DNA of 64,000 nucleotides from Candidatus Marinacidobacterales bacterium (lineage in GTDB: Bacteria; Acidobacteriota; Vicinamibacteria; Marinacidobacterales; DATDRI01). A program made the position numbers and the translations under genes. Shown one piece after another: positions 1 to 62,562 of this stretch. The notes under the pieces were generated by a model, which did not search any database, was not told the origin of the DNA, and worked only from the letters and a program-made list of their open reading frames with translations. The stretch lies in assembly GCA_965226495.1 (NCBI GenBank), contig OZ245365.1:3267516-3331515 (forward strand). Reading direction: 5' to 3'. How positions within the stretch are numbered: the stretch's first letter is position 1; each line of letters opens with the position of its first letter.

Positions 1-367
1 GCTATGAAAACCCGATACTCGAATATAGGAGTATATTAGGTGAATGTCAAGTCATGTCATACGCACAATCTAACTAATTAGAAACAAAGGACTTAGACAG
101 AAAAACCAAAGGGTCGAAGGACCTGGCCGGTGGCTCAACTCATTGATAAAACAGTACTTACGCGCCCGGGCGCGGGCAAAAGACGTCTCTTCCCTTTCGA
201 GGCTGCCCCCGTCGCCGACCCCGGTCCGTTCCGTCGTCCTCGTCTAGCGTCTGACGCCCGGCCTCGTTTCGGCAACCGACGCCCGGCAAACTTCCCTCGT
301 GGCAAGCTTAGCAGGCATCCCTTTTTGGCGACTTACTGGCTCAATCCAGTAAAATAGTCAGTCGACC

Positions 368-1270
368 ATGAAGAACCTAGTTCCCCTGCCGTATCGCCGG
401 GTCTCGGTCCAGCCCTACGAACGCGAGATGACGGAAAAGCCCATCCGCGCGCACCTGATGGGCCGGGAGACGTATCGGCGGACGGACTTCATCGTCCTGA
501 GGAAGGGCCCAGACAGTAAGGAGACGGCGGTCGTCGAGGTCACGGCCCCCGATAGGGAGAGTCTCTTCAGCCCCATCGATTCGGTCCGGATCGTGGCCCT
601 GCCCGAAACCTGTGTCTTCGTCGAAGCCCCGGAGACCGATCCGGCCAACCCCTCCTCCCTGGCAGCCAAGGCGCACGAGCTCGGGATCGAGGGCGAGCAA
701 ACGCTGGTGGTGCGCGGCAAGTACGAGCACGTCGGCTTCATTCACCACCCCGATCCCATGGTCATCCGTGTCGTAGAAGTTTCTCCGCCGGAGCCGCCCA
801 AGCTCTTCGACCTCGCCCAACGCGTGCTCAGCTATGCGGAGCTTCCCCCAATACGGTTGGAGCTCACCCGCATCGACCTGAACGAGCTCGCCGAAGGCCA
901 CTCCCCTTCCGCCTTTCTGGTACCTTGCCGCTCCGGAGGACTGGATGGGCTCAAGGCACCGGTGTACTTTCTGGACGAGCGTCCGGCACGGCTCGATTGG
1001 ACGATGATCGGGTGCGAGCGCAGTCTACAGTTCCATCGTCACTACTACGGCGACGAGCCGCCCCGCATAGAGCTCTGCCCGCGCCAATTGGCCGGCGAGA
1101 ACGACGCTCCAACGCTACTCAAGTGTTGCCTCCTCGAGTTCGATTCCGAGCTCGACGAAAATGTTGCGATAGCACCCTGGGGCGCTGATCTGGCGATGGT
1201 GGAGAAGGCCATTCGTCAACTCGTGGCGGTCGCGGAGCGCGCACCCGCCGAAGCTACCAAAGCTACGTGA
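368..1270 (+). CDS. hypothetical protein; first gene of the comA-lyase operon
   Basis: 300-aa ORF ending 18 nt before the comA-like gene on the same strand. I recognise no family by eye. Confidence 0.5.
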   Translation: MKNLVPLPYRRVSVQPYEREMTEKPIRAHLMGRETYRRTDFIVLRKGPDSKETAVVEVTAPDRESLFSPIDSVRIVALPETCVFVEAPETDPANPSSLAAKAHELGIEGEQTLVVRGKYEHVGFIHHPDPMVIRVVEVSPPEPPKLFDLAQRVLSYAELPPIRLELTRIDLNELAEGHSPSAFLVPCRSGGLDGLKAPVYFLDERPARLDWTMIGCERSLQFHRHYYGDEPPRIELCPRQLAGENDAPTLLKCCLLEFDSELDENVAIAPWGADLAMVEKAIRQLVAVAERAPAEATKAT

Positions 1271-1288
1271 CATAGGAGAAAAGCATTC

Positions 1289-2125
1289 ATGACCAAAGCT
1301 TGGACTTCCATCTTTCCTGAGCTGGCGGCCCGCTCGCGGAAACCACGAACTCGCGGCGTGACGATGCTGCTGGACAAGTGCCAGGGCCCCGCGGCCACCG
1401 AAGATCTCCTGGCCATGTCGGGGGACTACATCGACTTTTGGAAGATGTCTTACGGAACGTCGGCTCTCCTCGACGACGGTTTCCTACGTCGCAAGATTGA
1501 AACGATCGGCCAGCACGACATCATCGTCCACCCTGGCGGCACATTGGCGGAATACGGGATCATGCGAGGTCTCACCCGAGAGTACGTCCGACACTGCCAG
1601 GCTCTCGGTTTCACCGGTGTCGAGATCTCGGATGGCACGATCGAAATGTCGCCCAGTGTGCGCCGGGATGCCATTCGGTACGCCCGGGATCTCGGTTTAA
1701 CCGTCATCACCGAGGTCGGTAAGAAAGACCCCAACGAGCAACCTGCGGTCGAGCTGCTAGCGGAACAAGCGCTAGGCGACTTCGATGCGGGCGCCTCCTG
1801 GGTCATCGTCGACGCGCGTGAGTCGGGTCGAGGAGTGGGGGTGTTCGACGCGGATGGCACCGTCCGCGAGGAAGCTGTCGATGCTATGGTCGATATCTTG
1901 GAAGGCCACCTCGATAAGATGATCTGGGAGACGCCGCTCAAGAAACAGCAGGAGTACTTCATCATCCGCTTCGGCCCGCATGTCGGACTCGGCAACATCC
2001 AACCGCGCGACGTCCTGGCACTTGAATCGATGCGCACCGGTATCCGCTTCGAGACTTTCCACGCCTTTGCCGAGAAGCTCCTCGAAGAGGCCCAGCAGGC
2101 TCGAGACGCGGCGGACGACGGATAA
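1289..2125 (+). CDS. comA: (2R)-phospho-3-sulfolactate synthase (ComA family)
   Basis: By-eye alignment to archaeal ComA blocks: GVTMLLDK, SGDYIDFWKMSYGTSAL, HPGGTLAEYG, LGFTGVEISDGT, TEVGKK, ARESGRGVGVFD, KKQQEYFIIRFGPHVGLGNI. Confidence 0.85.
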   Translation: MTKAWTSIFPELAARSRKPRTRGVTMLLDKCQGPAATEDLLAMSGDYIDFWKMSYGTSALLDDGFLRRKIETIGQHDIIVHPGGTLAEYGIMRGLTREYVRHCQALGFTGVEISDGTIEMSPSVRRDAIRYARDLGLTVITEVGKKDPNEQPAVELLAEQALGDFDAGASWVIVDARESGRGVGVFDADGTVREEAVDAMVDILEGHLDKMIWETPLKKQQEYFIIRFGPHVGLGNIQPRDVLALESMRTGIRFETFHAFAEKLLEEAQQARDAADDG

Positions 2126-2136
2126 CGAGAGAACCC

Positions 2137-3732
2137 ATGGTTTTTGGCGACCCCCCCTCCGACGCCCTCATCCGAACCGCCTATGCGCGCGAGGCGGGCG
2201 ACACGGCTATCCTTTATAAGGGGATGAGCCTGGCCGATATCGCCCACGTCGTCGGCTTGGTGGAGTCCAAGATCATTCCCCGCCAGGCGGGAGGCGAGCT
2301 CTTGTGGGCATTGCTAGAAATCCATCCTTCACCCCCGATGGATTTTGCCGTCGATCCCGGCCGCGGTGATTCCTACTCGAACCGCGAGGCTTACTTGAGA
2401 ATGCTCACTCCCTCGGCCGGATGGCTGTCGGCAGGCCGGGCGCGGCGCGAGTCCACGACGACCGGTTATCGAATCGCCGTCCGAGAGCGGTTGCTGAGCT
2501 TGGCCGGAGCACTCGGCGACTGCGCCGCGGCGGCACTCGAGCAATGTGACGCGCATCGAACGACTCTCTTCCCCGACTACACGTACCTTCAGCCGGCTCA
2601 ACCCACCGTGTTCGCGCATTACCTCCTGACGTTCGTCTACCCCATGCTCCGTGATCTAGAGCGTCTCGGTGGCGCCTTCGCGCGTACCAATGTCTCGCCG
2701 GCCGGCTGCGGCAGCGTGAACGGAAGCCGGCTACCCTTGGACCGCGAGGCGCTTTCCCAAATGCTCGGCTTCGACCGCCCCATCCCGCACGCACGCGACG
2801 CCATGTGGCAGGCGGACGGCCCGATCGAAAACGCGGCACTCATCACCGCGGTGCTCATCAACCTCGACCGCCTGGCCGAAGACCTGCAGATCTTTTCGAC
2901 ATCCGAGTTCGGGCTCGTCGAGTTGGCCGACCGCCATGCGCGCCCGAGCGTGATCATGCCGCAGAAGAAAAACCCGTACTCGCTCGCCTATCTCCGAGGG
3001 CTTGCCGGGGTTTCCATCGGCACCTTGGCTGCGATGGCTGCGGTCGCCAAGACGCCTTCCGGACAGATCGACAATCGCATGTTCGCTTATGGCGACGTAC
3101 CGCGGGCGCTCGATCAAGCGACGGACGCAACACGGTTGATGGCCGACGTGCTCCGAGGGCTCACTGTGAAGACGGATGTCGCTGAAAATCGAGCCGCACA
3201 AGACTTCCTCGGTGCGACCGACTTGGCGGAAGTCATCATGATCGAGTGCGAGATCGACTACAAAACCGCGCACCGTATCGTAGCCCGAGCCATTCGGGAG
3301 GCCCTCGAATCAAACGAAGTAGGCGAATCGGCGCTAGCCATCGAACGACTGGAAGCCGCCGCCGAAGCCACCATCGGAAAAAAACTCGGCCTCTCGAAGA
3401 AAAGAATTCGCGAGGTGCTCGACCCGGCGAGTATCGTCGCCACGCGCACCGGTATCGGAGGCGCCGCGAGCGAATCGGTGAGCGAGATGATCGCCGCATG
3501 CAGAAATGGCCTGAACGAAAATGAAGCGTGGCGCCTGGAGACGGGAAGGAAACTCGTGGAGGCCGAAACACGATTGGGAATGAAGGCCACACTACTGAAG
3601 ATCGTTCCCGCCGAGCCCGCTGAGAAAGACGGCTCGCCTGAATCGCAGCAAGCCGAAACCAGTTCTTGGGAAAAGGAGTTCGAAGATCTCCCCAAGATGC
3701 CTCCCGGGCGCCGCCGATTTCCAGCCGAATGA
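2137..3732 (+). CDS. aspartase/fumarase-superfamily lyase, argininosuccinate-lyase-like, with C-terminal extension
   Basis: Lyase_1 signature region RPSVIMPQKKNPYS (compare GSSxMPQKKNP). 531 aa. Starts 12 nt after comA. Confidence 0.8.
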   Translation: MVFGDPPSDALIRTAYAREAGDTAILYKGMSLADIAHVVGLVESKIIPRQAGGELLWALLEIHPSPPMDFAVDPGRGDSYSNREAYLRMLTPSAGWLSAGRARRESTTTGYRIAVRERLLSLAGALGDCAAAALEQCDAHRTTLFPDYTYLQPAQPTVFAHYLLTFVYPMLRDLERLGGAFARTNVSPAGCGSVNGSRLPLDREALSQMLGFDRPIPHARDAMWQADGPIENAALITAVLINLDRLAEDLQIFSTSEFGLVELADRHARPSVIMPQKKNPYSLAYLRGLAGVSIGTLAAMAAVAKTPSGQIDNRMFAYGDVPRALDQATDATRLMADVLRGLTVKTDVAENRAAQDFLGATDLAEVIMIECEIDYKTAHRIVARAIREALESNEVGESALAIERLEAAAEATIGKKLGLSKKRIREVLDPASIVATRTGIGGAASESVSEMIAACRNGLNENEAWRLETGRKLVEAETRLGMKATLLKIVPAEPAEKDGSPESQQAETSSWEKEFEDLPKMPPGRRRFPAE

Positions 3733-3756
3733 GCGCTCGAGTCAAATCTTAATTTT

Positions 3757-5148
3757 ATGCCATCTCACATCTCCGATTCGCTGATCTACCGGAGCTCATG
3801 GGGCACCGAGGAAACGCGTGCGATATTCGACGACGAGCCCCGAACCCGCGCTTGGCTCGAGATCCTGGCCGTGCTGGCGGAAAGCCAAGCGGAAGTAGGT
3901 CTCATCCCTGCCGGTGATGCCAAGAAAGTAGCGCGCGCTTGCCGAGAGATGACGCTCGACACCGAGTTCTTCGAGGAGGTCCGGAAGGGTTTCGAGGAGA
4001 CCAATCACACCACGCTCGGCCTCATTCGCGCCGTCCAACGCCGTTGCCCCGACGGCTCGGGCGAATGGGTCTACTACGGTGCCACCGTACAAGACGTCGT
4101 CGACACCTGGACCATGATGACGGTCGCGCAAGTATGGTCCATCGCGTTCCGGGAGCTGAAAGCGCTCGAAGAGAATCTCCTTAGGCTCGCGGAGACTCAC
4201 AAAGATACGGTAATGCCCGGTCGTACGCACGGCCAGCCCGGACTCCCCATCACCTTTGGTTTCAAGGCGGCAGTCTGGGCGAGCGAGACCCGACGCCACA
4301 TCGCGCGCCTCAAAGACATTAGAAGTCGCATCGGAGTGGGTCAGCTCGTCGGCGGTGTAGGCAGCATGTCCTCCTTGGGTCCGCAGGCTTTCACGTTGCA
4401 AGAGAAGTTCTGTTCTCGCCTAGGGCTTCGACCGTCGGATATCTCATGGACCACCGCGCGCGACGTCTTTGTAGAATGGTTCCAGCTGCTAACCCTCATC
4501 TCCGGTACCGCAGACAAAATGGGGCATGAGATCTACAACCTGCAGCGTCCCGAGATCGGTGAGGTGACCGAAGGTTTCGTACCGGGAACGGTGGGGAGCA
4601 TCACGATGCCGCACAAGCGCAACCCCGAAATCGCGGAGCACCTGGGCACGCTGGCGAGAGTAATTCGTCACAACACGGCGCTCCTGTCAGAATCTCAAGT
4701 TCACGACCACGAGCGGGACGGGCGAGCTTGGAAGTCGGAGTGGGCGGTTCTGGCCGAGACATCGATGGCGGCGGCAAAGCTTCTCGAGTTGACCAACACG
4801 ATGATCCAACATCTCGACGTCCACGCCGACCGAGCGCTCGCCAATCTGGAAGCGAGCAAGGGCTTCGTGCTGTCGGAAGCCGTCATGCTGAAGCTAGCGG
4901 AGCACGTTGGCAAGCAAAGCGCTCACACATTAATGTACGAGACCGCGATGAAGGCGCATGAGGCAGATCGTCCGCTAAAGGACGCCGTCTTAGAAAATGA
5001 TGCCATCCGCAAGCACCTGTCCGCGGAGACCATCGAGGCTCTTTTCGACTACCGGCGACATACAGGCTTCTGTAGCGAGCAAGTCGATCGGGTGCTGGCG
5101 CGAGCCAAGAAGGAGAGGGAGAGGGAGAGGGAGAGCGACTCGAAATGA
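3757..5148 (+). CDS. aspartase/fumarase-superfamily lyase, adenylosuccinate-lyase/PcaB-like
   Basis: GSITMPHKRNPE signature and a HGQPGLPITFG block. 463 aa. The C-terminus is an ERERERE tail encoded by a GAGAGG microsatellite. Confidence 0.8.
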   Translation: MPSHISDSLIYRSSWGTEETRAIFDDEPRTRAWLEILAVLAESQAEVGLIPAGDAKKVARACREMTLDTEFFEEVRKGFEETNHTTLGLIRAVQRRCPDGSGEWVYYGATVQDVVDTWTMMTVAQVWSIAFRELKALEENLLRLAETHKDTVMPGRTHGQPGLPITFGFKAAVWASETRRHIARLKDIRSRIGVGQLVGGVGSMSSLGPQAFTLQEKFCSRLGLRPSDISWTTARDVFVEWFQLLTLISGTADKMGHEIYNLQRPEIGEVTEGFVPGTVGSITMPHKRNPEIAEHLGTLARVIRHNTALLSESQVHDHERDGRAWKSEWAVLAETSMAAAKLLELTNTMIQHLDVHADRALANLEASKGFVLSEAVMLKLAEHVGKQSAHTLMYETAMKAHEADRPLKDAVLENDAIRKHLSAETIEALFDYRRHTGFCSEQVDRVLARAKKERERERESDSK

Positions 5149-5558
5149 AACCCTGTTTCTACATCGGGTTGGCACTGATTCTATTCACGTTGGGAGGGTG
5201 TGGCAACGGAGAAGGCACCAAGAGTGGCGAAACCAACATCAAACCCCTCCCCACCGGCAACCCGACAGACGGAGAAAGCGTCTTCTTGGGCACGTGTATC
5301 AAATGCCACGGCAAAGATGCGACCGGGATCGAAGGTTCAGGAACCAATCTGACCATCAGCGAGTTCGTCAAAGCTCATACTGATGCCGAGTTGGTGGAGT
5401 ACATCAAGACCGGACGCGCGATGAACGACGCGCTCAACACGACGGGGATCGCGATGCCCCCGTACGGCGCCAATCCAATGCTAACCGATCAGGATCTCGC
5501 CGACGTCGTGGCTTACTTACGAGCCGTTCAGCGTGCACCCGATTCACCGACGAACTGA
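5145..5558 (+). CDS. mono-haem c-type cytochrome, probable lipoprotein
   Basis: Single CxxCH (CIKCHG). N-terminal hydrophobic segment followed by LGGCGNG. Its ATG overlaps the upstream lyase stop (ATGA). Confidence 0.7.
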   Translation: MKPCFYIGLALILFTLGGCGNGEGTKSGETNIKPLPTGNPTDGESVFLGTCIKCHGKDATGIEGSGTNLTISEFVKAHTDAELVEYIKTGRAMNDALNTTGIAMPPYGANPMLTDQDLADVVAYLRAVQRAPDSPTN

Positions 5559-5572
5559 GGAAAAACATACCC

Positions 5573-6568
5573 ATGTCGACTCCCACTCGTTTCGAGCTAG
5601 GCATTTTTCCCACACCTCTCGTCGAGGCCTCGCGCTTATCGCAAGCCCTCGAGGGTCCACGCATCCTTATCAAGCGCGACGACCTCACGGGTTTCGGCTT
5701 CGGTGGCAACAAAGTACGTGGACTCGAGTATTCCATCGCGGACGCCATCGCGCAGAAAACCGATGTCGTCGTCACCGGAGCGGGCCCCCAATCGAACCAC
5801 ATCCGCGCCACCGCGGCCGCGGCGCGAGCGGCGGGGCTCGATGTGGTCGCCGTCATGCACGGTGACCGGCCCGCCGAGACGCAGGGCAATTTTCTTCTCG
5901 ATCAATGGCTAGATGTCGAGATCCGTTTCACTAACGATCCCGACCGCAGCCTCTTAGATCAGAAGATCGAGGAAGTCGCCGAGGAGCTCCGGCAATCGGG
6001 GCGACGACCGTATGTCATTCCGCGGGGCGGTTCTTCGGGACTCAGTGCCTGCGGTTACGTGCAGTGTGCCCGTGAAATGGGGGAGCAGCTCGTAGACCGC
6101 GGCGCCAGACCCCACTGGCTGGTCATCGCAACCGGGGGCGGTGGCACGCATGCGGGTCTCCTTGCCGGTTCGAAGATTTACGATGCACCGTATCGCATTC
6201 TCGGCGTCACGGTGAGCCGTCCGCCGGAGGAGTGCGAGGAACGCATCGGACGCCTGGCGCGTGAGGCGGCGAAGCTCGTCCGGCCTCAAGGTGATCCTAT
6301 CCAGATCGCTCCCGACGACATCTCTGTCCGTGACGGCTTCATCGGCGAGGGGTACGGCATTCCCTCGCCGGAAGGCATCGAAGCCATCCGCCTGCTAAGC
6401 CGGACAGAAGGAATGTTCTTGGATCCCGTCTATACCGGCAAGGCCATGGCCGGCCTTATTGGTGAGATCCGAGCGGGGCGCATTAGGAAGGGCGAGACGG
6501 TCGTCTTCGTTCACACCGGAGGAGAGCCTGCCCTCTTTGCCTACCCGGAGATCGCAACGCGTTCATGA
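5573..6568 (+). CDS. PLP-dependent enzyme, ACC deaminase/D-cysteine desulfhydrase family (fold type II)
   Basis: FPTPL...KRDDLTGFGFGGNKVRGLEY PLP-lysine motif. QSNHIRATAAAA and TGGGGTHAGL glycine-rich loop. Confidence 0.85.
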   Translation: MSTPTRFELGIFPTPLVEASRLSQALEGPRILIKRDDLTGFGFGGNKVRGLEYSIADAIAQKTDVVVTGAGPQSNHIRATAAAARAAGLDVVAVMHGDRPAETQGNFLLDQWLDVEIRFTNDPDRSLLDQKIEEVAEELRQSGRRPYVIPRGGSSGLSACGYVQCAREMGEQLVDRGARPHWLVIATGGGGTHAGLLAGSKIYDAPYRILGVTVSRPPEECEERIGRLAREAAKLVRPQGDPIQIAPDDISVRDGFIGEGYGIPSPEGIEAIRLLSRTEGMFLDPVYTGKAMAGLIGEIRAGRIRKGETVVFVHTGGEPALFAYPEIATRS

Positions 6569-6607
6569 AAAGCAGCCTGCCCGCTGCGATTTACCTGATT
6601 GCCGCCC

Positions 6608-7078
6608 TCATACCAACCGGTGGCGCACCGCACGAAGAGTCTCGTCGCTCTCGTCGAACGCCAGAGTCTTCGCCGCTTGCAGTAGACCCTCGACCTGTGC
6701 CGCTTCGTGCCCCCAGGAGTCACCCGCGAATAAAACCGGCAAGTAGGCGGTGCGAGCGAGGCCGGTAAGATCCTCTTCTTGGATATCAATCGAGCCAAGA
6801 GCCGTGTGGTCAATCCTTGGCACCGAGAGCGTGACCGCCCTCTGACGATGGGTCTCGAGATCGGCGATCACCTCGGGTAAGGCTACGATGATGAGTTGGA
6901 CCGGGCGGCCGAGGTGTGTTCGTCCAATGGTCTCCACACGCACCCGCGGGCTCTTCTCGAGCTCTGCTAGTGTCGAGGCGAAACTTCGATCGACGAGCAG
7001 CACTTCTGCAGGAGGCTGCGTGCTCTCGGCTTGTGATCCACCAGCCGCCAACAAAAGGGCCAGCACTTGAAAGGTCAT
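6608..7078 (-). CDS. hypothetical secreted protein
   Basis: Signal-peptide-like N-terminus MTFQVLALLLAAGGSQA. No family recognised. Confidence 0.4.
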   Translation of the reverse strand: MTFQVLALLLAAGGSQAESTQPPAEVLLVDRSFASTLAELEKSPRVRVETIGRTHLGRPVQLIIVALPEVIADLETHRQRAVTLSVPRIDHTALGSIDIQEEDLTGLARTAYLPVLFAGDSWGHEAAQVEGLLQAAKTLAFDESDETLRAVRHRLV

Positions 7079-7222
7079 CTTGATTCCCTCCGGCGGCTTG
7101 ACGGTCTGTCGGCCTGTCAGGCGAACCCGGGTACCACACTCTATACATCCTATTTGACCGATGGAAGCCAAGACAAATAGAATACGCCCGCTCCAGGAAG
7201 GGATTTAGGAGAAGGACCCACG

Positions 7223-10200
7223 ATGAACAATTCTTACACTCACCGAACAGCTTTCATCGGCGCTCTAGTGCTGATCGCGATGGTGCCCCGGGTCGCTGCC
7301 GAGCCCTATGATCCGGATGTTTACCAAAATCTGGAGTGGCGTTTCATCGGTCCTTATCGCGGCGGCCGCGTGACGACCGCGGTAGGTGTCCCTGGACAAG
7401 CCAACGTCTACTACCAAGGGGCAACCGGCGGCGGCGTTTGGAAAACCACCGATGCTGGACTTTCTTGGAAAAACGTCTCTGACGGTTTTCTCAAGACCGG
7501 CTCGGTGGGCGCGATCGCCGTAGCTCCATCCGATCCCAACGTCGTGTACGTGGGCATGGGAGAGGTTTGCATTCGGAGCAACTTCTCGCACGGAGACGGG
7601 GTCTACAAATCGACCGATGCCGGTAAAACCTGGACGCATGTCGGGCTCTCTGACTCGCGGCAAATCGGTCAGATCCGCGTCCATCCCGAAAACCCCGACC
7701 TGGTCTACGTCGCGGCGCTGGGTCACGTCTTCGGCCCCAACGAAGAGCGAGGCGTATTTCGGTCCAAGGACGGGGGGACGTCGTGGGAGAAAGTCCTTTA
7801 CATAGATGACAAGACCGGCGCGGTCGATTTGAGCCTGGATGTTACGAACCCCAACGTCATCTACGCAGCTATGTGGCAAGTCATTCGAAAACCATGGGGC
7901 ATCCTTCCGCATGGGCCTGGAAGCGGTATCTACAAAACGACGAACGGTGGAGATTCCTGGGAAGAGCTCACCCGCGGCCTGCCAGGGACGGGTCTCGGAA
8001 GGATCGGCGTTTCGGTCTCTCCCGTCAATCCCAACCGAGTGTGGGCGCTGGTCGAGGCTGACGGCGGGGATCTCTTTCTTTCCGACGACGCCAGCGTCTC
8101 TTGGACTATGGTCAACGACGATTTTCATTTACAGCGGCGACCTTATTACTACGGCCACATCTATGCCGATACTCAAGAGGTCGACTCTGTCTACGTCCTC
8201 ACCTCTCCCTTCATGAAGTCGATAGACGCGGGGAAGTCCTTCGCGCATATCGAAGTGCCTCACGGGGATAACCACGACCTTTGGATCGCGCCCGACGACA
8301 ACAACCGCATGATCAACGCCAACGATGGTGGCGCAAACGTATCCTTCGACGGAGGAAAGAGCTGGAGTCGAATCGATAACCAGCCTACCGCTCAGTTCTA
8401 TTGGGTCATCACGGACGACCGGTTCCCCTATCGTGTTTACGGTGCCCAACAGGACAATACGACAGTCTCGATCGCAAGCCGGACGGCAACCCCCGGAATC
8501 GCGGCGAGTGATTGGTATGCGGTGGCGGGGGGCGAGAGCGGCTACATTGCTCCCAAACCGGGAGCTCCCGACGTAACCTACGGGGGCAGCTATTGGGGAT
8601 TGATGACGCGTCACGATCGCCGCACCGGCGAAAATCGTGACGTTTCGCCTTGGCCGGCTCGGCCGATGGGGCGCGTGGGAGCGGATCTGAAGTACCGCTT
8701 CAACTGGACGTATCCTATTGTGATCTCGCCGCATGATCCCAACACGATCTTTGCCGGGGCGAACGTCGTCTTCCGCTCCACCAACGAAGGGCAGAGCTGG
8801 GAAGTGGTCAGCCCGGACCTAACTCATGACGACAAAAGCAAGCAGCGGCTGGGTCGACTCTCCGACTTCTACTGCACGATCACTTCGATCGCCGAGTCGA
8901 AGCTCCAAAAGGATTTGCTCTGGGTGGGGTCCGACGACGGAAGAGTTCACCTGACACGGAATGGCGGGCAAGAGTGGCTAGAGGTCACGCCTTCAGAAAT
9001 GGAAGCGTGGAGCCGGATAAACGTCATTGAACCCTCGCCTCATGACGCGGGCTCGGCGTACTTGGCGGTGAACCGATACCAGCTCGACGACTACCGACCG
9101 TATGTTTACAAGACCAAGGACTTTGGAAGCAGCTGGAAGCGGGTGGCGAAAGGTATCCCCGAAAACGCGTTCGTCAGAACGGTGCGCGAAGATCCCAAAC
9201 GCAGAGGGCTCCTTTACGCCGGTACTGAAACGGGCGTCTACGTATCTTTCGACGACGGAGAGAACTGGCAGTCGCTGCGAGGCAACTTGCCGATCGTGCC
9301 GATTACCGACCTCGCGGTCAAGAACGATGACCTCGTCGCCGCCACTCAAGGCCGCGCTTTCTGGATCTTGGATGATCTGACACCGCTCCATCAGCTCACG
9401 CCAGAGATCGCCGCATCTCCTTTCTTCCTATTCGAGCCACGCGACGCATACCGGGTGAGGAAACACCGCTCCTTTCTCCGAGACCCGAACACGGGTCAGA
9501 ATCCCCCCGACGGCGTCATCGTGGACTATTTACTGCGAGATAGTTCAGGCGTAGTGACTCTCGAGTTCCTCGACGCCGATGGCGGCACGATCCAGTCCTT
9601 AAACAGCTCGGACCAGGAATCGAACGTCACTGTGGAACCAGGACTCAATCGTTTCGTCTGGGATATGCGCTATCCCGATGGCACGGATCTCACAAATGGC
9701 AGTCATCTATTCGGCGGCAATCTCCGTGGGCCCATGGCCGTCCCAGGCACTTACCAGGTCCGCCTAGCGGTAAGCGGTGAAACGACGAGTGCTTCGTTCG
9801 ACATCAGAAAAGATCCAAGGGTTACCGCCACCCGTGAGGATCTTCAGGCTCAGTTCGACTTGCTCATCGCCATCCGTGATGGTGTGAGCGACGCCCACAC
9901 CGCGGCCAACCAGATCCTCGCCGCTAAGGAACACGTCCAGAACTTATCGACTGAGGACGCGAACATAGAGACCCAAGCAAGGGAGGTTGACCTGAAGCTC
10001 ACCGCAGTCCTGGACGAGCTGGTGGAGCTGCGCTTCCGTGGCATCGACGACCAGATGCTCGTCTACCCGCTGCAGCTAAACGCAAAGATCGTGTCTTTAC
10101 AGCGAGTGGTTGCTAGCGCAGAACGCCGGCCCACCGATCAGTCCGTGGAAGTCTTTAGAGTGTTACGGTCTCAGCTCGACACGCAACTCAGGAAGCTCGA

Positions 10201-13549: not shown

Positions 13550-13885
13550 ATGAGGTTGATCGTATCCATTTCTTTTTTCCTTCTCTCTTCCACCACGCTG
13601 TGTGCCCAATTTTTCGAACCTGAAGTCTATGAGACGCGACGCGAGGCGGTGCTGGAGAATTTGGGCGAGGCGATCGCGATCGTTCCTGGTTACTCCGGGG
13701 CGCTGGGCATGGGTGTCTACCGACAGTCGGCCCACCTCATTTACTTGGCAGGTGTGGAAACTCCCAACGCCTATTTGGTCCTGGACGGTCGCTCGAAACG
13801 GTACTTCGTTGCCCCTCAGCCTGTCTCGCATTCACTGGACACCGGGCGCAAAAACGCTTTTCTACGAAGCGAAAGGCTCACATGA
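13550..13885 (+). pseudogene. truncated N-terminal fragment of a secreted Xaa-Pro aminopeptidase (AMP_N domain)
   Basis: Signal peptide then YRQSAHLIYLAGVETPNAYLVLDG, resembling FRQDSDFYYLTGFNEPEAVLVL of the PepP N-terminus. The ORF ends after about 110 aa where the transposase remnant begins. Confidence 0.45.
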
Positions 13886-14312
13886 CGACCCCCTCGCTTC
13901 TCATCCGCGAGGCGAGGCCCTCGATGTCTTCGAGTTCCTGGCCCGAGTCCTCACGCAAATCCCCAAGCCTCGGCAACACGGCGTGCACTACATGGGCGCC
14001 TACTCCTCGAGAGCGCGCGCCTTTCGAAAAAGGAAAAACCGCCGCCTGCAATCACTCACCAGCCAACAAAACCCCAAAGCCAACTCTGAGCCGAACCTGT
14101 CTCCCAAAAAGCGTGCCGCGCTCAGAAAAAGATGGGCACAGCTCATCAAGCTCATCAGGCGCGTTCATCAGACCGACCCTCTCCGGTGCGACTGCGGAGG
14201 CACCTATCGCGTCATCGCCTTCATCACCGAGCAGAAGGTGATTCGGAAAATCTTGGCTCATCTCGAAAAAAGAAGAAGAAAAAGCGACTCGCACCCGCCA
14301 CCCGAGCCCTAG
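13854..14312 (+). mobile_element. IS91-family (Y2-type, rolling-circle) transposase C-terminal remnant
   Basis: VFEFLARVLTQIPKPRQHGVHYMGAYSSRARA and C-terminal zinc-finger tail RCDCGGTYRVIAFITEQKVIRKILAHL are typical of the IS91 TnpA C-terminus. The catalytic N-terminal part is absent. Confidence 0.6.
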
Positions 14313-14604
14313 TCACTGGCTTCACACCACGCCACTTGTCCGTTACCCCGACACCAGACGGCCGGAGTGTTTCTTCAACACCTAACTCCCCCGGCGGGAG
14401 ACACTTCTCAACCGCCTTGCCCCGTTTGCTCGAGTTCTGCTACCCTCACCAGGACTCACTCGGACTGCACAGACCCATTCTGGTGGGGAAAACTCGCGGG
14501 CCGGCGCTCGGGAGCGTATGAATTTTCCTATCCTTTATCCTTTCTCCACGAACGCCCGTTAAGCGTCCTGCCCCCCTAATGTAGCGCGCCGTCCGAGCAA
14601 AAGT

Positions 14605-15963
14605 TCACTGGCGCTCGCTCACTCCGGTTGCCTCAATCGGTAGGGTAATTGTGAATTCGGTGCCCTTTCCCACCTGGCTGGCTACTTCTATCTGGCCACG
14701 GTGTTTGTGCACAATGTGCCGAGCGGCCGTTAAGCCCAGGTTCGCTCCGACTCTAGAACCTTGGGATCGAAAGCCCAAATCGAAGAGGGTCCTCGCGTCT
14801 TCCGGCGACATGCCTTTTCCGGTATCTAAGATCTTAGACGTAGAGGGTCCTCGCGTCTTCCGGCGAACACTCTTCTCCTTCGTGAAAGTTCTAATTGTGA
14901 CGCTGCCCCGCCATTCAACCGCCTGTATGGCAGTCATCAGTAAAGCCATGAAGACTTGGTTGAGCTCGCCGTGGTTACCATGAATCTCCGGAATACAGCC
15001 ATACTCTTTTACCAAACTTATTCCCTCCTTAATTTCGTTTTGAATTAAGGTTAGGGTACTTTCAATTCCTTCGTGAATGTTGGCCTTCTGGAATTCGCCT
15101 TCGTCCAATCTAGTAAAACTCTTCAAACTCTTTGCTATTCTGGCGATTCTGTCACTGGCAGATGAAGAAGTCTGACTATTTTCTTGGAGAATTCTAAGGC
15201 ACTCTTGATAATCACGACTATTCTTGACTTCAGCAGGCGTTTCGCTATTTTCCAAAATCTGCTCCAACCTAGCGACAGAACGAATTAACACGTCCGCATT
15301 ACCCTTAATCACGCCAATAGGCGTATTGATTTCGTGAACAATGCCTGCGGTAAGCTGTCCGAGGGCCGCCATCTTCTCAGATTGAACCAATTGAGCCTGG
15401 GCAGTTTGTAACTCGCTCTCCACTCGCTTGCGCTCCAGTTCAGCGGTGGCTCGTGCAGCGAAGATTTTGAAAATCGACAGGTCACGATGTTCACCAGTCA
15501 TGGGCTTATCATCTAACGTGGCCAAGTGGCCTAGCACATCGCCCGAAGAGTCGACTAGTGGTATCGCCAGATAGCTCTCCGCACCTAATTCGACGAGTGC
15601 TTCATCCTCCGGAAAAGCAGATTGCACATTTTCAGCATAGCGACAAATCTCGCCGCGCAACACTTTCTCGCAGGGTGTTCCAGCAAGATTGTAGCCATAG
15701 TTGTCCATAAAGCTATGGTCTTTCCAAAAGGCCAGTGTTCTGACTCTGGTTTTCACCTCCGTAAACTCGGAAATGAAGGCATAGCGTACGTGAAGCGCGC
15801 AGGCAAGATTTCGGACAAGCGAACGAAAAAAATCATCGCCCGTCAATGGAGCTGTACCTTCAATGATCGTGCGGAATATGTCATCCCGACTTGCTTGGGT
15901 TCTCTGCATCGCTGTCGGGCCCACAACACTCGATCCAAAGGACTGACTGACGCAATAGCTCAT
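14605..15963 (-). CDS. soluble GAF-domain sensor histidine kinase
   Basis: N-terminal GAF. HisKA block VHEINTPIGVIKGNADVL. HATPase_c with DTGKGMSPED, GLGFRS and GANLGLTAARHIV. Its start overlaps the upstream sigma stop (ATGA). Confidence 0.85.
   Translation of the reverse strand: MSYCVSQSFGSSVVGPTAMQRTQASRDDIFRTIIEGTAPLTGDDFFRSLVRNLACALHVRYAFISEFTEVKTRVRTLAFWKDHSFMDNYGYNLAGTPCEKVLRGEICRYAENVQSAFPEDEALVELGAESYLAIPLVDSSGDVLGHLATLDDKPMTGEHRDLSIFKIFAARATAELERKRVESELQTAQAQLVQSEKMAALGQLTAGIVHEINTPIGVIKGNADVLIRSVARLEQILENSETPAEVKNSRDYQECLRILQENSQTSSSASDRIARIAKSLKSFTRLDEGEFQKANIHEGIESTLTLIQNEIKEGISLVKEYGCIPEIHGNHGELNQVFMALLMTAIQAVEWRGSVTIRTFTKEKSVRRKTRGPSTSKILDTGKGMSPEDARTLFDLGFRSQGSRVGANLGLTAARHIVHKHRGQIEVASQVGKGTEFTITLPIEATGVSERQ
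15918..15963 (-). repeat. 46-nt sequence spanning the kinase start codon; copy A of a dispersed direct repeat
   Basis: 41 of 46 nt identical to 18171..18216 in the same orientation. Confidence 0.85.
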
Positions 15964-16811
15964 TGTAAGCTCCTTCTTCTAACGTCGTTTCTCAGAGAGT
16001 TTCGATCCGCCGTTCTAGGTTTCGGTGCCAACCGAGCCCGAGAGCCTCGGGGTCCTCGCGGGAGACAAGGTTGCTCGCTTGCGACGCGCAGCTTTGCTGG
16101 CCCATCTGTCTCTTGATAGCGCTCGAGCGCGTTTCGAACCTTCGTGCGTCCCCGGTGGAGCAACACTTTTTGATTGGCCTCGGTCAGTCCAAGTACTTGA
16201 CAGACCTCTTCCGCGGACCAGCCCTCGATATCCCGCAGGGTGACGACCTCGGCTTGTCGCGGGGGCATCGACTGAAGTTCCTTCCGGATCATCGTGATCG
16301 TTTCTGTCGACAAGAGACGATCTTCGGGCGTCTGTCTCCATCGGCGAGGCGGGGACATCCAGGCGTGTCGATCGTCTGAGAATCGCTCGGCTGCCGCCGC
16401 AAGATTGTCGGCAGGGTTCTCGATTTCACTCAGGGACGAAAACGGGACCGTCCGTCGTTCCCTCTTGGCTCTCGTTCGCGCGACATTCATGAGAATCGAG
16501 AAGATCCAAGTTTTGAGTGAAGAGCGACCCTCGAAGCGCTCCAGGCCTCGAATCGCCGCGAGCCAAGTCTCCTGAACTACCTCTTCCGCCATCTCTCGAT
16601 CAGAAAGGACCGATCTCGCGAGGCCAAGCATGGACGACGAGAGCCGCTCGAGCAAGACCTCGAACGCCCTCTCGTTGCCGGCCCGGAGTGCCTCTATGAA
16701 GTCCTTCTCTTGATGGTATCCGTCGGCGCTCTGCCCCCGCTGGAGAGGCCACAGGATGGTGGTCGGGCTCGTTGCAACCGTTTCCATTTGCTGGGTCATG
16801 TGCTGGGTCAT
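15960..16811 (-). CDS. ECF-type sigma-70 family sigma factor with a C-terminal extension of about 50 aa
   Basis: Region 2 (VQETWLAAIRGLERFEGRSSLKTWIFSILMNVA) and region 4 (EVVTLRDIEGWSAEEVCQVLGLTEANQKVLLHRGRTKVRNAL). Probable start MTQHMTQQME. Confidence 0.85.
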   Translation of the reverse strand: MTQHMTQQMETVATSPTTILWPLQRGQSADGYHQEKDFIEALRAGNERAFEVLLERLSSSMLGLARSVLSDREMAEEVVQETWLAAIRGLERFEGRSSLKTWIFSILMNVARTRAKRERRTVPFSSLSEIENPADNLAAAAERFSDDRHAWMSPPRRWRQTPEDRLLSTETITMIRKELQSMPPRQAEVVTLRDIEGWSAEEVCQVLGLTEANQKVLLHRGRTKVRNALERYQETDGPAKLRVASEQPCLPRGPRGSRARLAPKPRTADRNSLRNDVRRRSLQ

Positions 16812-16965
16812 GGAATTTCTCCTTTCCTGGAAAGCAATTTGCCAGTGGCCCCTCTGGAACACCATGCCGAGCAGATCACGGGTGCGTCAAAGCGTCTTCA
16901 CGATGCAAATAATTGATTCTTAAAGAGTTGGTGAGTTGGATCACGCAGAAAAGGGTGGGTTGCCC

Positions 16966-17025: not shown

Positions 17026-18231
17026 CTATTTGGGCGGATACTCCGTCAAGACAAAGTCCTTGCCCGTGGAGTGGCAGCCGGAGCAGAGGGGAAGGCCGTT
17101 GCCAACCCCGACAATGTCACTGCTGTCTTCCGTGTTGGTCGTTTCGTACCAGAACCAACCCTGCCCTTGAGCGCTGTCTTCTTGGGTCTTGACCATCACC
17201 GCCCAGCCGAGAAGCTCGGAACCATCCTCGCTGTACATTTCCTTCACGATCGATGAGCCGGCCGGATGCGACGCATTTCCTGCCGCGAGGGAAGCGTCGA
17301 TCTTGGCATCCAAGTAGACGCGAACCGGCCAGCTGAACTTGGCATGGGGTCCTCGGGAAGCGTGTTTCTCAGATTCTTGGCTCTCGAATGACCTGTATGA
17401 GCCAGCTTTGAGGAATTCGTGAAGCCTTTGGGCTTCGGTGGGCACGACCGAGTCCACGGTAGGTGTATCGGCTGTCGCTTTCATGGCCGACTCGGACGCG
17501 CCGAGCATCGTATCCGCCATGCGATCGTACGACTCGTCGCCGCTTCGCATCGCCGCGCCGCTGGGAGACGCTGAGGAAGGAGAGCCCAGAGAGCTCTGCC
17601 GCGGCCCCTTTGCGGCGCGCAGCACCGGATAGTACTGGGTAAAGACCCCATTATCCGCGGCAGCCGCTTCGTGGCAGGAGCTACATGCCGCGGCTGGGAA
17701 TTTCTCTGCGGTGTCCGCAAGCGGATAGCTATGGCCGAAGCTGAAGTAAGCCCAGTTCCCTGGCTCGTCGGGAAAACGGTTCGAGTCCTTGACAGCGGCC
17801 TCCAAACCGATGAACTCGCCCATGAAGTAGCCTCTACCGCTAGCGGCCGCCTTCGAGCCCACGCTGACGAGCTCCTTGACCAGGACTGTCCCCTCCCGGA
17901 AATTTCCGGTTTCCATGTAGTGGTCGTAGCTCTCGGGATCGATATAGACGTTGTGGAAGTCCGGGAACGGCGCTTCGGGCGGATTCATGTCGTTGGGTGT
18001 CAGCGGCGTTCCGATGTACACCCACGTCCGGTAACCCGTGGGCCGGATGAGCCAACCCTGGCCATCGAAGTGGACCGGCGTTTCCTCCTGCGGTGGCTCG
18101 GCCGTCGCAAAGAGAGCAGGACTGAGGATGTAGCTCGATGCGAGAACCGTCAGCCCCATAACAACGGCCAGGCCCACAACCCTCGATCCAAAGGACTGAA
18201 TGACGCGATACTTCATTTGCATTTCGTTCAT
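17026..18231 (-). CDS. tandem two-domain cytochrome P460-family haem protein, secreted
   Basis: Two repeats of the P460 pattern: G(T/S)VLVKE...GNWAYFSF...CSSCHEAAAADNGVFTQYYP and IVKEMY...GWFWYET...CSGCHSTGKDFVLTEYP. N-terminal signal/TM. The alternative start MKYRV lies at 18216. Confidence 0.75.
   Translation of the reverse strand: MNEMQMKYRVIQSFGSRVVGLAVVMGLTVLASSYILSPALFATAEPPQEETPVHFDGQGWLIRPTGYRTWVYIGTPLTPNDMNPPEAPFPDFHNVYIDPESYDHYMETGNFREGTVLVKELVSVGSKAAASGRGYFMGEFIGLEAAVKDSNRFPDEPGNWAYFSFGHSYPLADTAEKFPAAACSSCHEAAAADNGVFTQYYPVLRAAKGPRQSSLGSPSSASPSGAAMRSGDESYDRMADTMLGASESAMKATADTPTVDSVVPTEAQRLHEFLKAGSYRSFESQESEKHASRGPHAKFSWPVRVYLDAKIDASLAAGNASHPAGSSIVKEMYSEDGSELLGWAVMVKTQEDSAQGQGWFWYETTNTEDSSDIVGVGNGLPLCSGCHSTGKDFVLTEYPPK
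18171..18216 (-). repeat. 46-nt sequence spanning the P460 start codon; copy B of the dispersed direct repeat
   Basis: 41 of 46 nt identical to 15918..15963. Confidence 0.85.
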
Positions 18232-20675: not shown

Positions 20676-21212
20676 CTAGCTCTCTTCCACGATATCCGGC
20701 TTCAGGGTGCCAATGATCTCGAGAAGCTCTGATTTCTCGGCGGCAGGAACTTTGAATTTATCCAAGGTGTCAACCAAGTGTTGCACCACGATGTTGAATT
20801 CCTTTTCAGTGATGCCGAGTCCACCATGAATGGTCTTGGCTGGCCGGCTGATGATCTTGCAGGGGCCCCCGGTGACGTTGCAGACCAAATTCTTGTTCTT
20901 CTGCCTGAACTGCTGCCTTGTATCATCGCCCATGCCCCTGAAAAACTGGGCAATGCGAGGATCAACAAACAACTTTCCCGCGAAGTCGTCGACCACGGCA
21001 GAAATCGCATCGTACCCGCCGAGCCGCTCGTATAACGATTTTCCCTCATCTGATTCATCTGGAGCCGACGAGCTCTCGACCGCAGACTCCAACAATGGGA
21101 GGCTGCCTTCGACAAGCGACGGCGGAGTCACAAGCAATACGGTTGCTAAGAAGAGCCCCTCACCCAGAAGAAAACTCCTCGTTCTTCTCCAATTTCCTAT
21201 TGCAAACATCAC
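20676..21212 (-). CDS. truncated haemoglobin (2/2 Hb, group I-like) with N-terminal signal peptide
   Basis: LYERLGGYDAISAVVDDFAGKLFVDPRIAQFF...HGGLGITEKEFNIVVQHLVDTL...LKPDIVE matches the trHbN consensus. Confidence 0.85.
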   Translation of the reverse strand: MMFAIGNWRRTRSFLLGEGLFLATVLLVTPPSLVEGSLPLLESAVESSSAPDESDEGKSLYERLGGYDAISAVVDDFAGKLFVDPRIAQFFRGMGDDTRQQFRQKNKNLVCNVTGGPCKIISRPAKTIHGGLGITEKEFNIVVQHLVDTLDKFKVPAAEKSELLEIIGTLKPDIVEES

Positions 21213-21359: not shown

Positions 21360-22568
21360 ATGCCGGAAATGAAAGGAAAAGAGCTTCGACTGCTTGGCGC
21401 AAGCTACTGTACGGCGCCGGTCGAGGTGAGGGAGTCTCTCGGCCACTTCGTCGCCGAGACTAAAGCGCGCTTGCTGCCGAACGAACCAGAAGAGTTGGAG
21501 CTCGTCGTCCTTTCTACCTGCAATCGCATTGAGATTTACACTTGGGCCCCGATACAGGCTGACTACCTGGACCAATGGTTTCGACAGATTGCCGATAGCA
21601 TTCGGCCCGGCGGCGCCTTTTCGAACGAAACGCTATATCACCATCGAGGCGAGTCAGCGGCGCGGCATCTGTTCCGAGTCGCTTGCGGGCTGGACTCGGC
21701 GGTCCTGGGTGATGTGCAGATACTGTCGCAGATCAAGCAGGCCCGGACGGCCGCGAAGGAGGCGCGAAGGCTTGGCATCTTCCTGGAACAGATCTTTCGG
21801 GTGGCCATCCAAGCGGGAAAACGGGCAAGACACGAAACCGAGATCGGGTATGGTGCGGCCAGCGTGGGTTCCGCCCTCGCCAGCATGCTCCGCCACCGCT
21901 CGAACTCCGGTTCTTTTCGCATCCTCCTTATCGGAGCCGGTAACGCCGCTCGCAACATTGGTCTGCACCTTGCCAAATCCGAGCTAGGCTCCATTGTATG
22001 CATCAACCGCACCCGCCACAAAGCGAACGAGCTTGCCCTTCAGTTGGGGGGAAAGTCCCGGGCCTGGGACGAGCTCGAACCAGCGTTGCTCGAAAGCGAC
22101 CTTGTCATTGCCGCGACATCGGCCGCCGAGCCCGTCCTTCAGAAAAACGACCTTGAGGAATTAGCCCGCCGGCGGCGCGGCGCGCCCATTTTGATCGTCG
22201 ACGCTGGCCTTCCCAGAAATGTGGAACCTGGCTCTCCTTTGGACGTGATTGGGATCGATGAAGTCCGTGAGCGGCAGGAACAGGTTATGGCAAGGCGTCG
22301 GGCTTCGGTGCCATCGGTGGAGCGAATCGTTCAGGACGCGGTCGAGGAGTGGCGACACTGGGTTGTTTCTAGGCCCATAGAGGAAATCGTTCGATCCCTG
22401 TTTCAAGAAGTGCCCAGCTACACAAGACAGGCGGCAGCCAGCCTCGTCGACGGCAAAGTACTGACGCCGGAAAAAGCAGAACGAATCCTCGAGAAGTCTG
22501 TTCGGCAACTCCTCCATGACCACGTCCGCCGCCTGCGCACCCTCGCCGTCCCGGGCCAGTCGCACTAA
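21360..22568 (+). CDS. hemA: glutamyl-tRNA reductase
   Basis: LSTCNRIEIY catalytic-Cys motif. NADP-binding LLIGAGNAARNIGLHL. Confidence 0.9.
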   Translation: MPEMKGKELRLLGASYCTAPVEVRESLGHFVAETKARLLPNEPEELELVVLSTCNRIEIYTWAPIQADYLDQWFRQIADSIRPGGAFSNETLYHHRGESAARHLFRVACGLDSAVLGDVQILSQIKQARTAAKEARRLGIFLEQIFRVAIQAGKRARHETEIGYGAASVGSALASMLRHRSNSGSFRILLIGAGNAARNIGLHLAKSELGSIVCINRTRHKANELALQLGGKSRAWDELEPALLESDLVIAATSAAEPVLQKNDLEELARRRRGAPILIVDAGLPRNVEPGSPLDVIGIDEVRERQEQVMARRRASVPSVERIVQDAVEEWRHWVVSRPIEEIVRSLFQEVPSYTRQAAASLVDGKVLTPEKAERILEKSVRQLLHDHVRRLRTLAVPGQSH

Positions 22569-61782: not shown

Positions 61783-62562
61783 CTATCCCTTGAAATTGGC
61801 CTGCAGGATGTTCATCCGGTAGTCGTCGCCTCCCATTTGGACATCTCTGCACATTTCGTAGAGTCGCGAACGAAGACGAGAAGTGATCCTCTCCGACAAG
61901 GTATATTCTTCGGTCGGCGGCCGTTTGCCGAACCCGGGGGCCGGCGCGGAGCGAGCCGCGACCCGACGGTCTGAGAAATTGGTTGTGATGACGGTGAGCT
62001 TCTTTTCGTTGTACCGGTGGTTCAGGATATAGAAGAGCGTATCGAACACCCACAGCGTCGAGTTTTCCCCACCGAGATCGTCGAGCACCAGCAGCTCCGA
62101 TTCGAGTACCGGTTGCAAGACTCCCATCTCCGTAACCGAAGTTTCCGGACTATACGATTCCTTTATCTCCCGCAGCAAGGAGCGGAAATCGGCGAAGCGA
62201 GTCCTGGTCCGAATACGTCTCTCCACGAGCACGCGCCTGCAAATGGCAACGGCGAGATGGGTTTTCCCAACCCCGGGAGGACCGCTAAACAAAAGACCGG
62301 CCTCGTTATCCGGGAACTCGTCGGCCCACTTTCCGGCAATCTTGCAGGCCTGGGCCAACTTAGGGTGGAGCAGCTCGAAGGGCTTTCCTCCACTCCGTTC
62401 ATCAAACGCACAGTCGCGATACCGAGAGGGGACCCGGGCCTTCCCCATCGCGGAGCCGGTGGTGTCACCCAACCAACAATCGCACCGCTCTACCCGAACG
62501 ACACCGTCCCGTTCGGCTCGCCTCCACGACGTGCCATCACAAATCGAACAAGGTTCGCTCAA
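61783..62562 (-). CDS. DnaC/IstB-family AAA+ ATPase with an N-terminal zinc ribbon
   Basis: CSICDG...CDCW zinc ribbon. SRYRDCAFDE. Walker [15 protein letters not shown]. Walker B LLVLDDLG. TTNF sensor. 4-nt overlap with the upstream sigma gene. Confidence 0.7.
   Translation of the reverse strand: MSEPCSICDGTSWRRAERDGVVRVERCDCWLGDTTGSAMGKARVPSRYRDCAFDERSGGKPFELLHPKLAQACKIAGKWADEFPDNEAGLLFSGPPGVGKTHLAVAICRRVLVERRIRTRTRFADFRSLLREIKESYSPETSVTEMGVLQPVLESELLVLDDLGGENSTLWVFDTLFYILNHRYNEKKLTVITTNFSDRRVAARSAPAPGFGKRPPTEEYTLSERITSRLRSRLYEMCRDVQMGGDDYRMNILQANFKG

Follow-up and report, generated by a model that had tools for sequence, protein, structure and literature searches.

We analyzed a 64-kb stretch of chromosomal DNA (hereafter the window) from a member of the Acidobacteriota, class Vicinamibacteria, Candidatus Marinacidobacterales, which carries a set of genes related to xcb, the bacterial genes for coenzyme M (CoM) biosynthesis. 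Six open reading frames (ORFs) lie contiguously and in one orientation on the + strand between positions 368 and 6568, in the order xcbA-xcbB-xcbC-xcbD-(cytochrome c)-xcbE (Table 1); the A-B-C-D-E order is that of Xanthobacter autotrophicus Py2. The gaps between them are 18, 11, 24, −4 (an ATGA stop/start overlap) and 14 nucleotides (nt). The initial annotation of the window had described six co-oriented genes with operon spacing, which was correct apart from the 12–24 nt range that it gave for the gaps, one of which is 11 nt. No terminator-like site was found on the + strand within window positions 1–7300, so the block fits a single transcription unit. Its nucleotide sequence was 99.9% identical in three independent assemblies (loci L089–L091), and the six genes are therefore not assembly artefacts. 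We also rejected a reading of the block as a pseudogene cluster or remnant, since the ORFs are all intact, near-identical in several assemblies and conserved between species. A truncated upstream gene at positions 1–367 was ruled out, as this region is non-coding; no homologue of it was found, the only match being one of 30 nt to the related locus L084. At gathering thresholds, Rfam gave no match anywhere in the window.

Table 1. Features at the start of the window, with functions as predicted from orthology and domain content (aa, amino acids).
Feature	Positions	Strand	Length (aa)	Basis
Non-coding leader of xcbA	1..367	.		Stop codons in all six frames
xcbA, XcbA-family [2Fe-2S] reductase	368..1270	+	300	NF052538, Pfam DUF7714
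xcbB/comA, phosphosulfolactate synthase (phosphoenolpyruvate + sulfite)	1289..2125	+	278	TIGR03849, Pfam ComA
xcbC, aspartase/fumarase superfamily, phosphosulfolactate phosphate elimination	2137..3732	+	531	NF052535, Pfam Lyase_1 + ASL_C2
xcbD, aspartase/fumarase-superfamily 3-sulfopropionyl-cysteine synthase	3757..5148	+	463	NF052536, Pfam Lyase_1 + ADSL_C
Monoheme class I c-type cytochrome lipoprotein	5145..5558	+	137	Pfam Cytochrome_CBB3/Cytochrom_C
xcbE, pyridoxal phosphate enzyme, D-cysteine desulfhydrase/ACC deaminase fold	5573..6568	+	331	NF052537, Pfam PALP

The proteins were compared with Pfam and with NCBIfam models that were built for the bacterial CoM pathway and have curated cut-offs. 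Pfam assigned the first ORF to DUF7714 (E = 1.1e-84), the second to ComA (1.6e-80) and the last to PALP (2.5e-50). For each of the five enzymes, the Xcb-pathway NCBIfam model was the top match, above every alternative. XcbA scored 443 bits (NF052538, cut-off 150), XcbB/ComA 297 bits (TIGR03849, cut-off 280) and XcbD 650 bits (NF052536, cut-off 600; next best purB, 303), while XcbC reached 565.2 bits against a cut-off of 575 (NF052535), the argH model giving only 258, and XcbE 399.9 bits against 450 (NF052537), with CuyA next at 334.6. These matches bear out the initial annotation in its assignment of ComA, of two aspartase/fumarase-superfamily members and of a fold-II pyridoxal phosphate (PLP) enzyme. 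The two lyases do not group with bona fide ArgH or PurB, an outcome that would have spoken against that annotation. The first ORF, which it left unnamed, is XcbA, the terminal reductase of the pathway.

By blastp, the window proteins and XcbA, B, C, D and E of Py2 were full-length mutual best matches, with 63, 47, 44, 50 and 49% identity, respectively, in keeping with the kinship to the Xanthobacter products proposed earlier. Alignments of 53 to 84 sequences per protein, drawn from both of the genomic context types described below, contained 46 to 95 columns per Xcb protein that were at least 97% identical across the two types. In XcbA, residues C82, C187, C216, C237, C253, C254, H223 and H225 were conserved at this level (84 sequences). 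The XcbC loop ARPSVIMPQKKNPYS (268–282) has the pattern R-x-S-[VK]-I-M-P-Q-K-[KR]-N-P, found in both context types. In XcbD, the loop VGSITMPHKRNPE is the same as in most XcbD sequences and the loop GSITMPHKRNPE the same as in Py2 XcbD, and the PLP-lysine motif of XcbE, GGNK47, is conserved. None of the Xcb enzymes has a solved structure, and XcbA has no sequence relative in the PDB; its AlphaFold2 model had a predicted local distance difference test score of 85.5. The closest solved structures are EDDS lyase (6g3d) for XcbC, Tad1/PcaB for XcbD and D-cysteine desulfhydrase (7ysk) for XcbE. No signal peptide was found in any Xcb enzyme.

The five-step xcb pathway and the chemistry of its enzymes were shown for X. 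autotrophicus Py2 in 2022 (Wu et al., PMC9457059), and the steps proposed here for the window proteins follow from orthology to the Py2 enzymes. XcbB would combine phosphoenolpyruvate (PEP) and sulfite into phosphosulfolactate, from which XcbC would eliminate phosphate to yield sulfoacrylate. XcbD would then add cysteine, giving 3-sulfopropionyl-cysteine, and PLP-dependent cleavage and decarboxylation of this compound by XcbE would produce sulfoethanethioaldehyde. Finally, XcbA, with its [2Fe-2S] cluster, would reduce the thioaldehyde to CoM. The locus had been taken for a variant of the Xanthobacter CoM route; the Xanthobacter type holds, but what we predict is the same five-enzyme pathway and not an enzymatic variant. 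The reported lack of ComB was confirmed, in that a Pfam scan of the main non-overlapping ORFs of the window, down to a length of 150 aa, detected no ComB, ComC or ComDE family.

To place the operon among its relatives, we surveyed xcb loci using one genome per species. XcbA relatives were present in 245 species, and the best 80 loci were examined. The genes xcbA–E occurred together in about 70 of the 80 species loci, so that comA is co-conserved with its neighbors, which favors the initial annotation. The loci fell into two context types. In type I (about 50 loci), xcbA–E lie directly downstream of xecA (68–82% identical to Py2), xecC, xecD and xecE; the hosts are Alpha-, Beta- and Gammaproteobacteria, including methanotrophs, and Ktedonobacteria. 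Type II, to which the window operon belongs, comprises 24 loci from Anaerolineales and Acidobacteriota in which, L023 excepted, no xec gene reaches 40% identity. Instead, type II loci carry co-oriented combinations of three modules, which we call O, S and M. Module O consists of (TusA/DsrE)-ccoN-like-ccoO-like-FixS-like-small protein-CMD, and module S of rhodanese-MetE-like-OsmC. Module M, found in Anaerolineales only, comprises an MtaA/CmuA-family UroD, TrmB, DUF3303, PF13769, a second UroD and DUF6951, then a RACo activase, a third UroD, a corrinoid protein and a PduO-type adenosyltransferase. This corrinoid system surrounds xcb in L173 (1511–16976, with the third UroD at 7499–8611) and in L006, L008, L010, L012, L019 and L021, and lies downstream of xcbE in L015 and L018/L172. 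Six loci have an MtrH-family gene between xcbB and xcbC, in some cases together with a MetV-like PF12225 gene. No O, S or M gene was found in any type I locus examined.

A neighbor-joining tree of concatenated XcbABCD (61 loci, 1434 columns, 100 bootstraps) recovered type II as a clade in 100/100 replicates, counting as a member L009, a short locus without context genes that falls inside the clade. Ktedonobacterial type I loci were the sister group of type II (83/100). The four Acidobacteriota formed a clade (100/100) nested in the Anaerolineales (69/100), and the closest species loci to the window are those of other Candidatus Marinacidobacterales metagenome-assembled genomes, with XcbA 89% and 79% identical. 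Because the Acidobacteriota subclade is nested in this way, the island has probably moved horizontally from Chloroflexota into Vicinamibacteria.

Several xcb loci depart from the common layout. Three to four Anaerolineales loci have a cytochrome P450 gene between xcbC and xcbD (L087, 13481–14710; L009, 5232–6458; L019, 14577–15803), one Anaerolineales operon contains a FIST/NosP-like sensor (L088, 13754–14947), and in one locus of this order a DUF1326 + PpoB2 copper-chaperone pair separates xcbD from xcbE (L019, 17246–18628). A plasmid of Methylocystis iwaonis carries a divergent xcb set in the order B-A-D-E-C, with 34–43% identity to the window proteins (L003, 7647–13746); it is preceded by an OsmC gene and has no xec genes in its 9-kb flanks. 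In the Anaerolineales locus L024 (9962–18066), xcbC follows right after xcbA with no xcbB between them, and the match to XcbD, at 23% identity, has the GSSAMP loop and is of the canonical PurB type; the cluster may be partial or rearranged.

The surroundings of the window operon agree with its type II placement. A tblastn search of the whole 64 kb with Py2 XecA, XecC, XecD and XecE (E ≤ 1e-3) found no xec homologue, and no xec, soluble di-iron monooxygenase or mcr-type/methanogenesis gene was detected by Pfam in the window, nor in the 8.7 kb upstream of xcbA in L089, a contig of the same species. The initial annotation had stated that the operon lacks any alkene-oxidation or methanogenesis context. 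The latter is true of the window genes, and the former of the window and these 8.7 kb, in a genome of 6.34 Mb. In L089, the 8.7 kb 5′ of xcbA read CMD (AhpD-like)-rhodanese-MetE-like Zn enzyme-OsmC-insertion-xcbA. The insertion of 5.8 kb contains an amidohydrolase, an IS481 transposase and an HNH protein (3645–8682), and the HNH gene ends just before window position 1. In L084, the 89% relative, an IS110 transposase insertion (6844–9471) separates the rhodanese/MetE-like/OsmC block from xcbA. The CMD/rhodanese/MetE-like/OsmC block is preceded by ccoN-like, ccoO-like and FixS-like genes in L084/L085, L086, L007 and L092, and in the last three it leads directly into xcbA. The MetE-like protein, 26–27% identical to XecA, is the sole relative of XecA, XecC, XecD or XecE near the operon.

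Judged by these sequence data, it is highly probable that positions 368–6568 constitute one operon encoding a complete bacterial CoM route, that it belongs to an xcb clade located away from epoxide genes, and that the client of this CoM is likely something other than epoxides. The biosynthesis itself is known chemistry; what is new is the clade and its conserved context. Some observations weigh against this interpretation. XcbC and XcbE scored under the curated NCBI cut-offs (565.2 against 575 and 399.9 against 450), the absence of epoxide genes covers the 64-kb window and 8.7 kb upstream out of a genome of 6.34 Mb, and the ATGA coupling between xcbD and the cytochrome gene, conserved in four species, might reflect a functional link that we have discounted.

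Since type II operons are not beside epoxide-carboxylation genes, CoM in this clade very likely serves something else than the known epoxyalkane pathway. The classical alternative is that CoM serves the detoxification or catabolism of epoxides and alkenes, with etnE/xecA, xecC and the dehydrogenases encoded elsewhere in the genome. No bacterial use of CoM is established other than epoxide/alkene metabolism (PMC9457059, PMC11507031), some Chloroflexota have xec-linked clusters (L023, L026, L027, L043 and L069), and there was one ‘Anaerolineae’ match to EaCoMT (P0168). However, xec lies immediately upstream of xcbA in the roughly 50 type I loci and, apart from L023, is missing at the 40% threshold from type II. 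Moreover, among the best 120 of 1290 matches, no EaCoMT relative of at least 70% identity was on the Mb-scale contigs of the lineage, although this is a weak negative. We therefore regard the classical use as doubtful in this clade.

With a non-epoxide client preferred, one tentative suggestion, which we would not put above the classical use, is that Zn-dependent thiol methyltransferases of the MetE-like and MtaA families use CoM as an acceptor or carrier of methyl (alkyl) groups. If so, methanogen-like methyl-CoM chemistry would exist in Bacteria with no methyl-CoM reductase. The suggestion is favored by the Anaerolineales loci, where xcb is interleaved with a corrinoid methyltransferase system that includes the MtrH-family gene. 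The window's organism probably lacks module M, because no MtrH relative, down to 44% identity, was on the Mb-scale contigs of the lineage (among the best 120 matches listed; a weak negative). In this lineage, the candidate for a methyl-acceptor client is the MetE-like Zn enzyme (L089, 1574–2746), which is encoded upstream in module S and retains the His-x-Cys/Glu/Cys zinc motif common to EaCoMT. Against the suggestion stand the missing MtrH relative on those contigs and the wide occurrence of modules S and M without xcb.

A metagenome scan with the MetE-like protein as query returned 80 loci. Relatives at 54–73% identity were usually flanked by OsmC and rhodanese genes, with no xcb in the flanks, and only two relatives, at 91%, adjoin xcb. 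We accordingly do not take a specific link, in which the MetE-like protein would be a dedicated CoM alkyltransferase, as shown, since the trio is present in dozens of contigs with no xcb in the flanks. In L103 and L104, MetE-like-OsmC is joined directly to the ccoN/ccoO-like oxidase and CMD module, again with no xcb. The MetE-like Zn enzyme, OsmC-like protein and two-domain rhodanese form a widespread, xcb-independent module of soil and sediment metagenomes (L097–L171). Likewise, the corrinoid module is not obligatorily linked to CoM: L174 and L175 have RACo-UroD-corrinoid-MtrH together with a BCCT transporter and no xcb.

Alternatively, CoM might be a protective low-molecular-weight thiol that works with OsmC, the AhpD-like CMD, a di-haem peroxidase and a high-affinity oxidase. 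Type II operons are flanked by genes for OsmC, CMD and a cbb3-like oxidase, joined in L084 by CCP_MauG, and OsmC is also encoded upstream of comA on a Methylocystis plasmid. Yet the OsmC/MetE-like/rhodanese trio is widespread with no xcb nearby, we identified no candidate for a CoM-disulfide reductase, and the argument is one of gene neighborhood alone. A protective role is consequently an unlikely explanation.

The cytochrome c gene was the unexpected member of the block. Its product matched Cytochrome_CBB3 (9.2e-11) and Cytochrom_C (8.1e-10) in Pfam and has a lipobox Cys19, a C51xxC54H55 heme motif and M104PP, with the methionine ligand, all of which are invariant in five orthologues of 51–79% identity. 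The gene overlaps xcbD by ATGA and is, as initially described, embedded and translationally coupled. The same slot between xcbD and xcbE, with an ATGA-type overlap, is occupied by a cytochrome gene in L004/L084 and L005/L086, and the slot is also filled in L092; in the Anaerolineae locus L011/L087, a homologue lies directly after xcbE. The gene is absent from all other xcb loci examined (≈70, Py2 among them). The protein is not a CcoP, as it has a single CxxCH and a lipoprotein signal and scored 40 bits with the ccoP model TIGR00782 (cut-off 180). The ccoN/O-like genes are within the island and do not adjoin the cytochrome gene, and in L084 the di-haem CCP_MauG gene comes immediately after xcbE. 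Most likely, the cytochrome is an exported lipoprotein that would be an accessory of the cbb3-type oxidase/peroxidase genes of the island and not of the cytoplasmic pathway. As it is found in few lineages only, it is probably respiratory baggage and no pathway enzyme.

The opposite possibility is that the cytochrome is a working part of the pathway, either passing electrons to XcbA or taking part in a periplasmic sulfur oxidation coupled to sulfite supply. Such a role could be read from the ATGA coupling to xcbD, which L004 and L005 share with the window, from the position of the gene between xcbD and xcbE in L092 and from the homologue adjoining xcbE in L011/L087, as well as from the rhodanese and TusA/DsrE sulfur-relay genes of the wider island. 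However, the lipoprotein signal places the protein outside the cytoplasm, whereas the Xcb enzymes have no signal peptides, and no sulfite dehydrogenase or Sox gene was found nearby. Typical c-type cytochromes also have potentials far above −372 mV. XcbA works at about this potential (PMC9457059). The five Py2 enzymes alone make CoM in vitro with no cytochrome (PMC9457059), and about 70 other xcb loci lack the gene. A working role in the pathway is therefore very unlikely. The earlier idea that the cytochrome is tied to sulfite supply received no support, as nothing was found that links them; a rhodanese gene lies 7.6 kb upstream in this species, and its product is the more obvious candidate for supplying sulfite.

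Least probable of all is that the product is not CoM, with XcbE a CuyA-like cysteate/sulfo-lyase and the lyases acting on other substrates in a sulfolactate/cysteate-type sulfonate pathway: this would accommodate the 334.6 bits that the PLP enzyme obtained from the CuyA model and the scores of XcbC and XcbE beneath their cut-offs, but the Xcb models beat every alternative for all five proteins, the five genes, including the pathway-specific xcbA, are retained in Py2 order, and each protein keeps 46 to 95 alignment columns with an identity of 97% or more over loci of both context types.

The remainder of the window is housekeeping in character, encoding a Sortilin/BNR protein, ApaG, RluD, Lon, DnaJ, PBP1, RF2, Lnt, RpoD and others. 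Right after xcbE lies a convergent ORF (6608–7171, − strand) with no Pfam match, which is called as 156 aa in L089; in L084, this slot is taken by the + strand CCP_MauG di-haem peroxidase. Within about 5 kb of one another are genes for a 401-aa cytochrome P460-domain protein (17026–18231, −), a bacterial-type globin (20676–21212, −) and HemA, the glutamyl-tRNA reductase (21360–22568, +). The G+C content falls to 0.52 at 14001–16000, over a histidine kinase/ECF sigma pair (14605–16865), beside which is a weak Y2-transposase-like ORF (13602–14312). Toward the end of the window are an IstB-like IS21 helper gene (61783–62562) and a gene for a 908-aa CHAT-NACHT-HEAT protein (58896–61622, −), a caspase-like protease fused to a STAND NTPase, possibly with a defence or signalling function.

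A 2024 study extended the etnE-linked clusters to methanotrophs; according to it, only methanogens and alkene users are known to carry genes for CoM biosynthesis (PMC11507031). Our full-text literature search turned up neither a description of xcb operons from Acidobacteriota or Anaerolineales nor an account of their linkage to oxidase, rhodanese or corrinoid modules. The type II hosts are abundant, largely uncultured groups of soils and sediments. If CoM is really made in them, there would be at least one unrecognised bacterial function of CoM, for which the neighborhoods offer MetE-like and MtaA-family thiol methyltransferases and OsmC/AhpD-type peroxidases as candidate clients. The result also speaks against taking comA or xcb genes in metagenomes as markers of alkene degradation or methanogenesis.

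The window enzymes can be compared with several known systems. With their superfamily relatives (EDDS lyase and argininosuccinate lyase for XcbC; Tad1, PcaB and PurB for XcbD; D-cysteine desulfhydrase, ACC deaminase and CuyA for XcbE) they share the fold, the S-x-x-M-P-x-K-x-N signature and the PLP lysine, but these relatives score far below the Xcb models; in addition, XcbC lacks the Gly before the Ser, and XcbD has GSIT where the relatives have GSSA. The archaeal ComA-ComB-ComC-ComDE route shares step 1, and the window protein passes the equivalog cut-off for archaeal ComA (TIGR03849). In contrast, ComB, ComC and ComDE have no counterpart among the window ORFs scanned, and the later steps would be phosphate elimination, cysteine addition, PLP-dependent cleavage and reduction. 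Archaeal-type comABCDE genes, with no known role, have been described in the Desulfobacterota class ‘Anaeropigmentia’, which lacks all propylene-pathway genes (bioRxiv 10.1101/2021.03.22.436540). There the gene set is archaeal and in the window it is the bacterial xcb set, but both are cases of CoM genes without a propylene pathway.

The closest likeness is to xcbA1–E1 of Py2 (pXAUT01), which has counterparts of all five enzymes in the same gene order and shares the XcbC and XcbD loop signatures, the PLP lysine of XcbE and the cysteines of XcbA. On the Py2 megaplasmid, xecA-xecC-xecD-xecE are followed by xcbA-B-C-D-E, whereas the window has neither xec upstream nor an alkene monooxygenase. The window operon differs further in the extra cytochrome c gene between xcbD and xcbE, in being chromosomal, in its acidobacterial host and in belonging to a separate clade. 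The etnE-linked clusters of methanotrophs and other Proteobacteria (PMC11507031) share with the window the core of ComA, two lyases and a PLP enzyme, as well as a mobile character; they are ethylene-induced and have an adjacent etnE/EaCoMT gene, which the window lacks. In Methylohalobius crimeensis, a sulfoacetaldehyde dehydrogenase replaces XcbA (PMC11507031), whereas the window operon retains XcbA.

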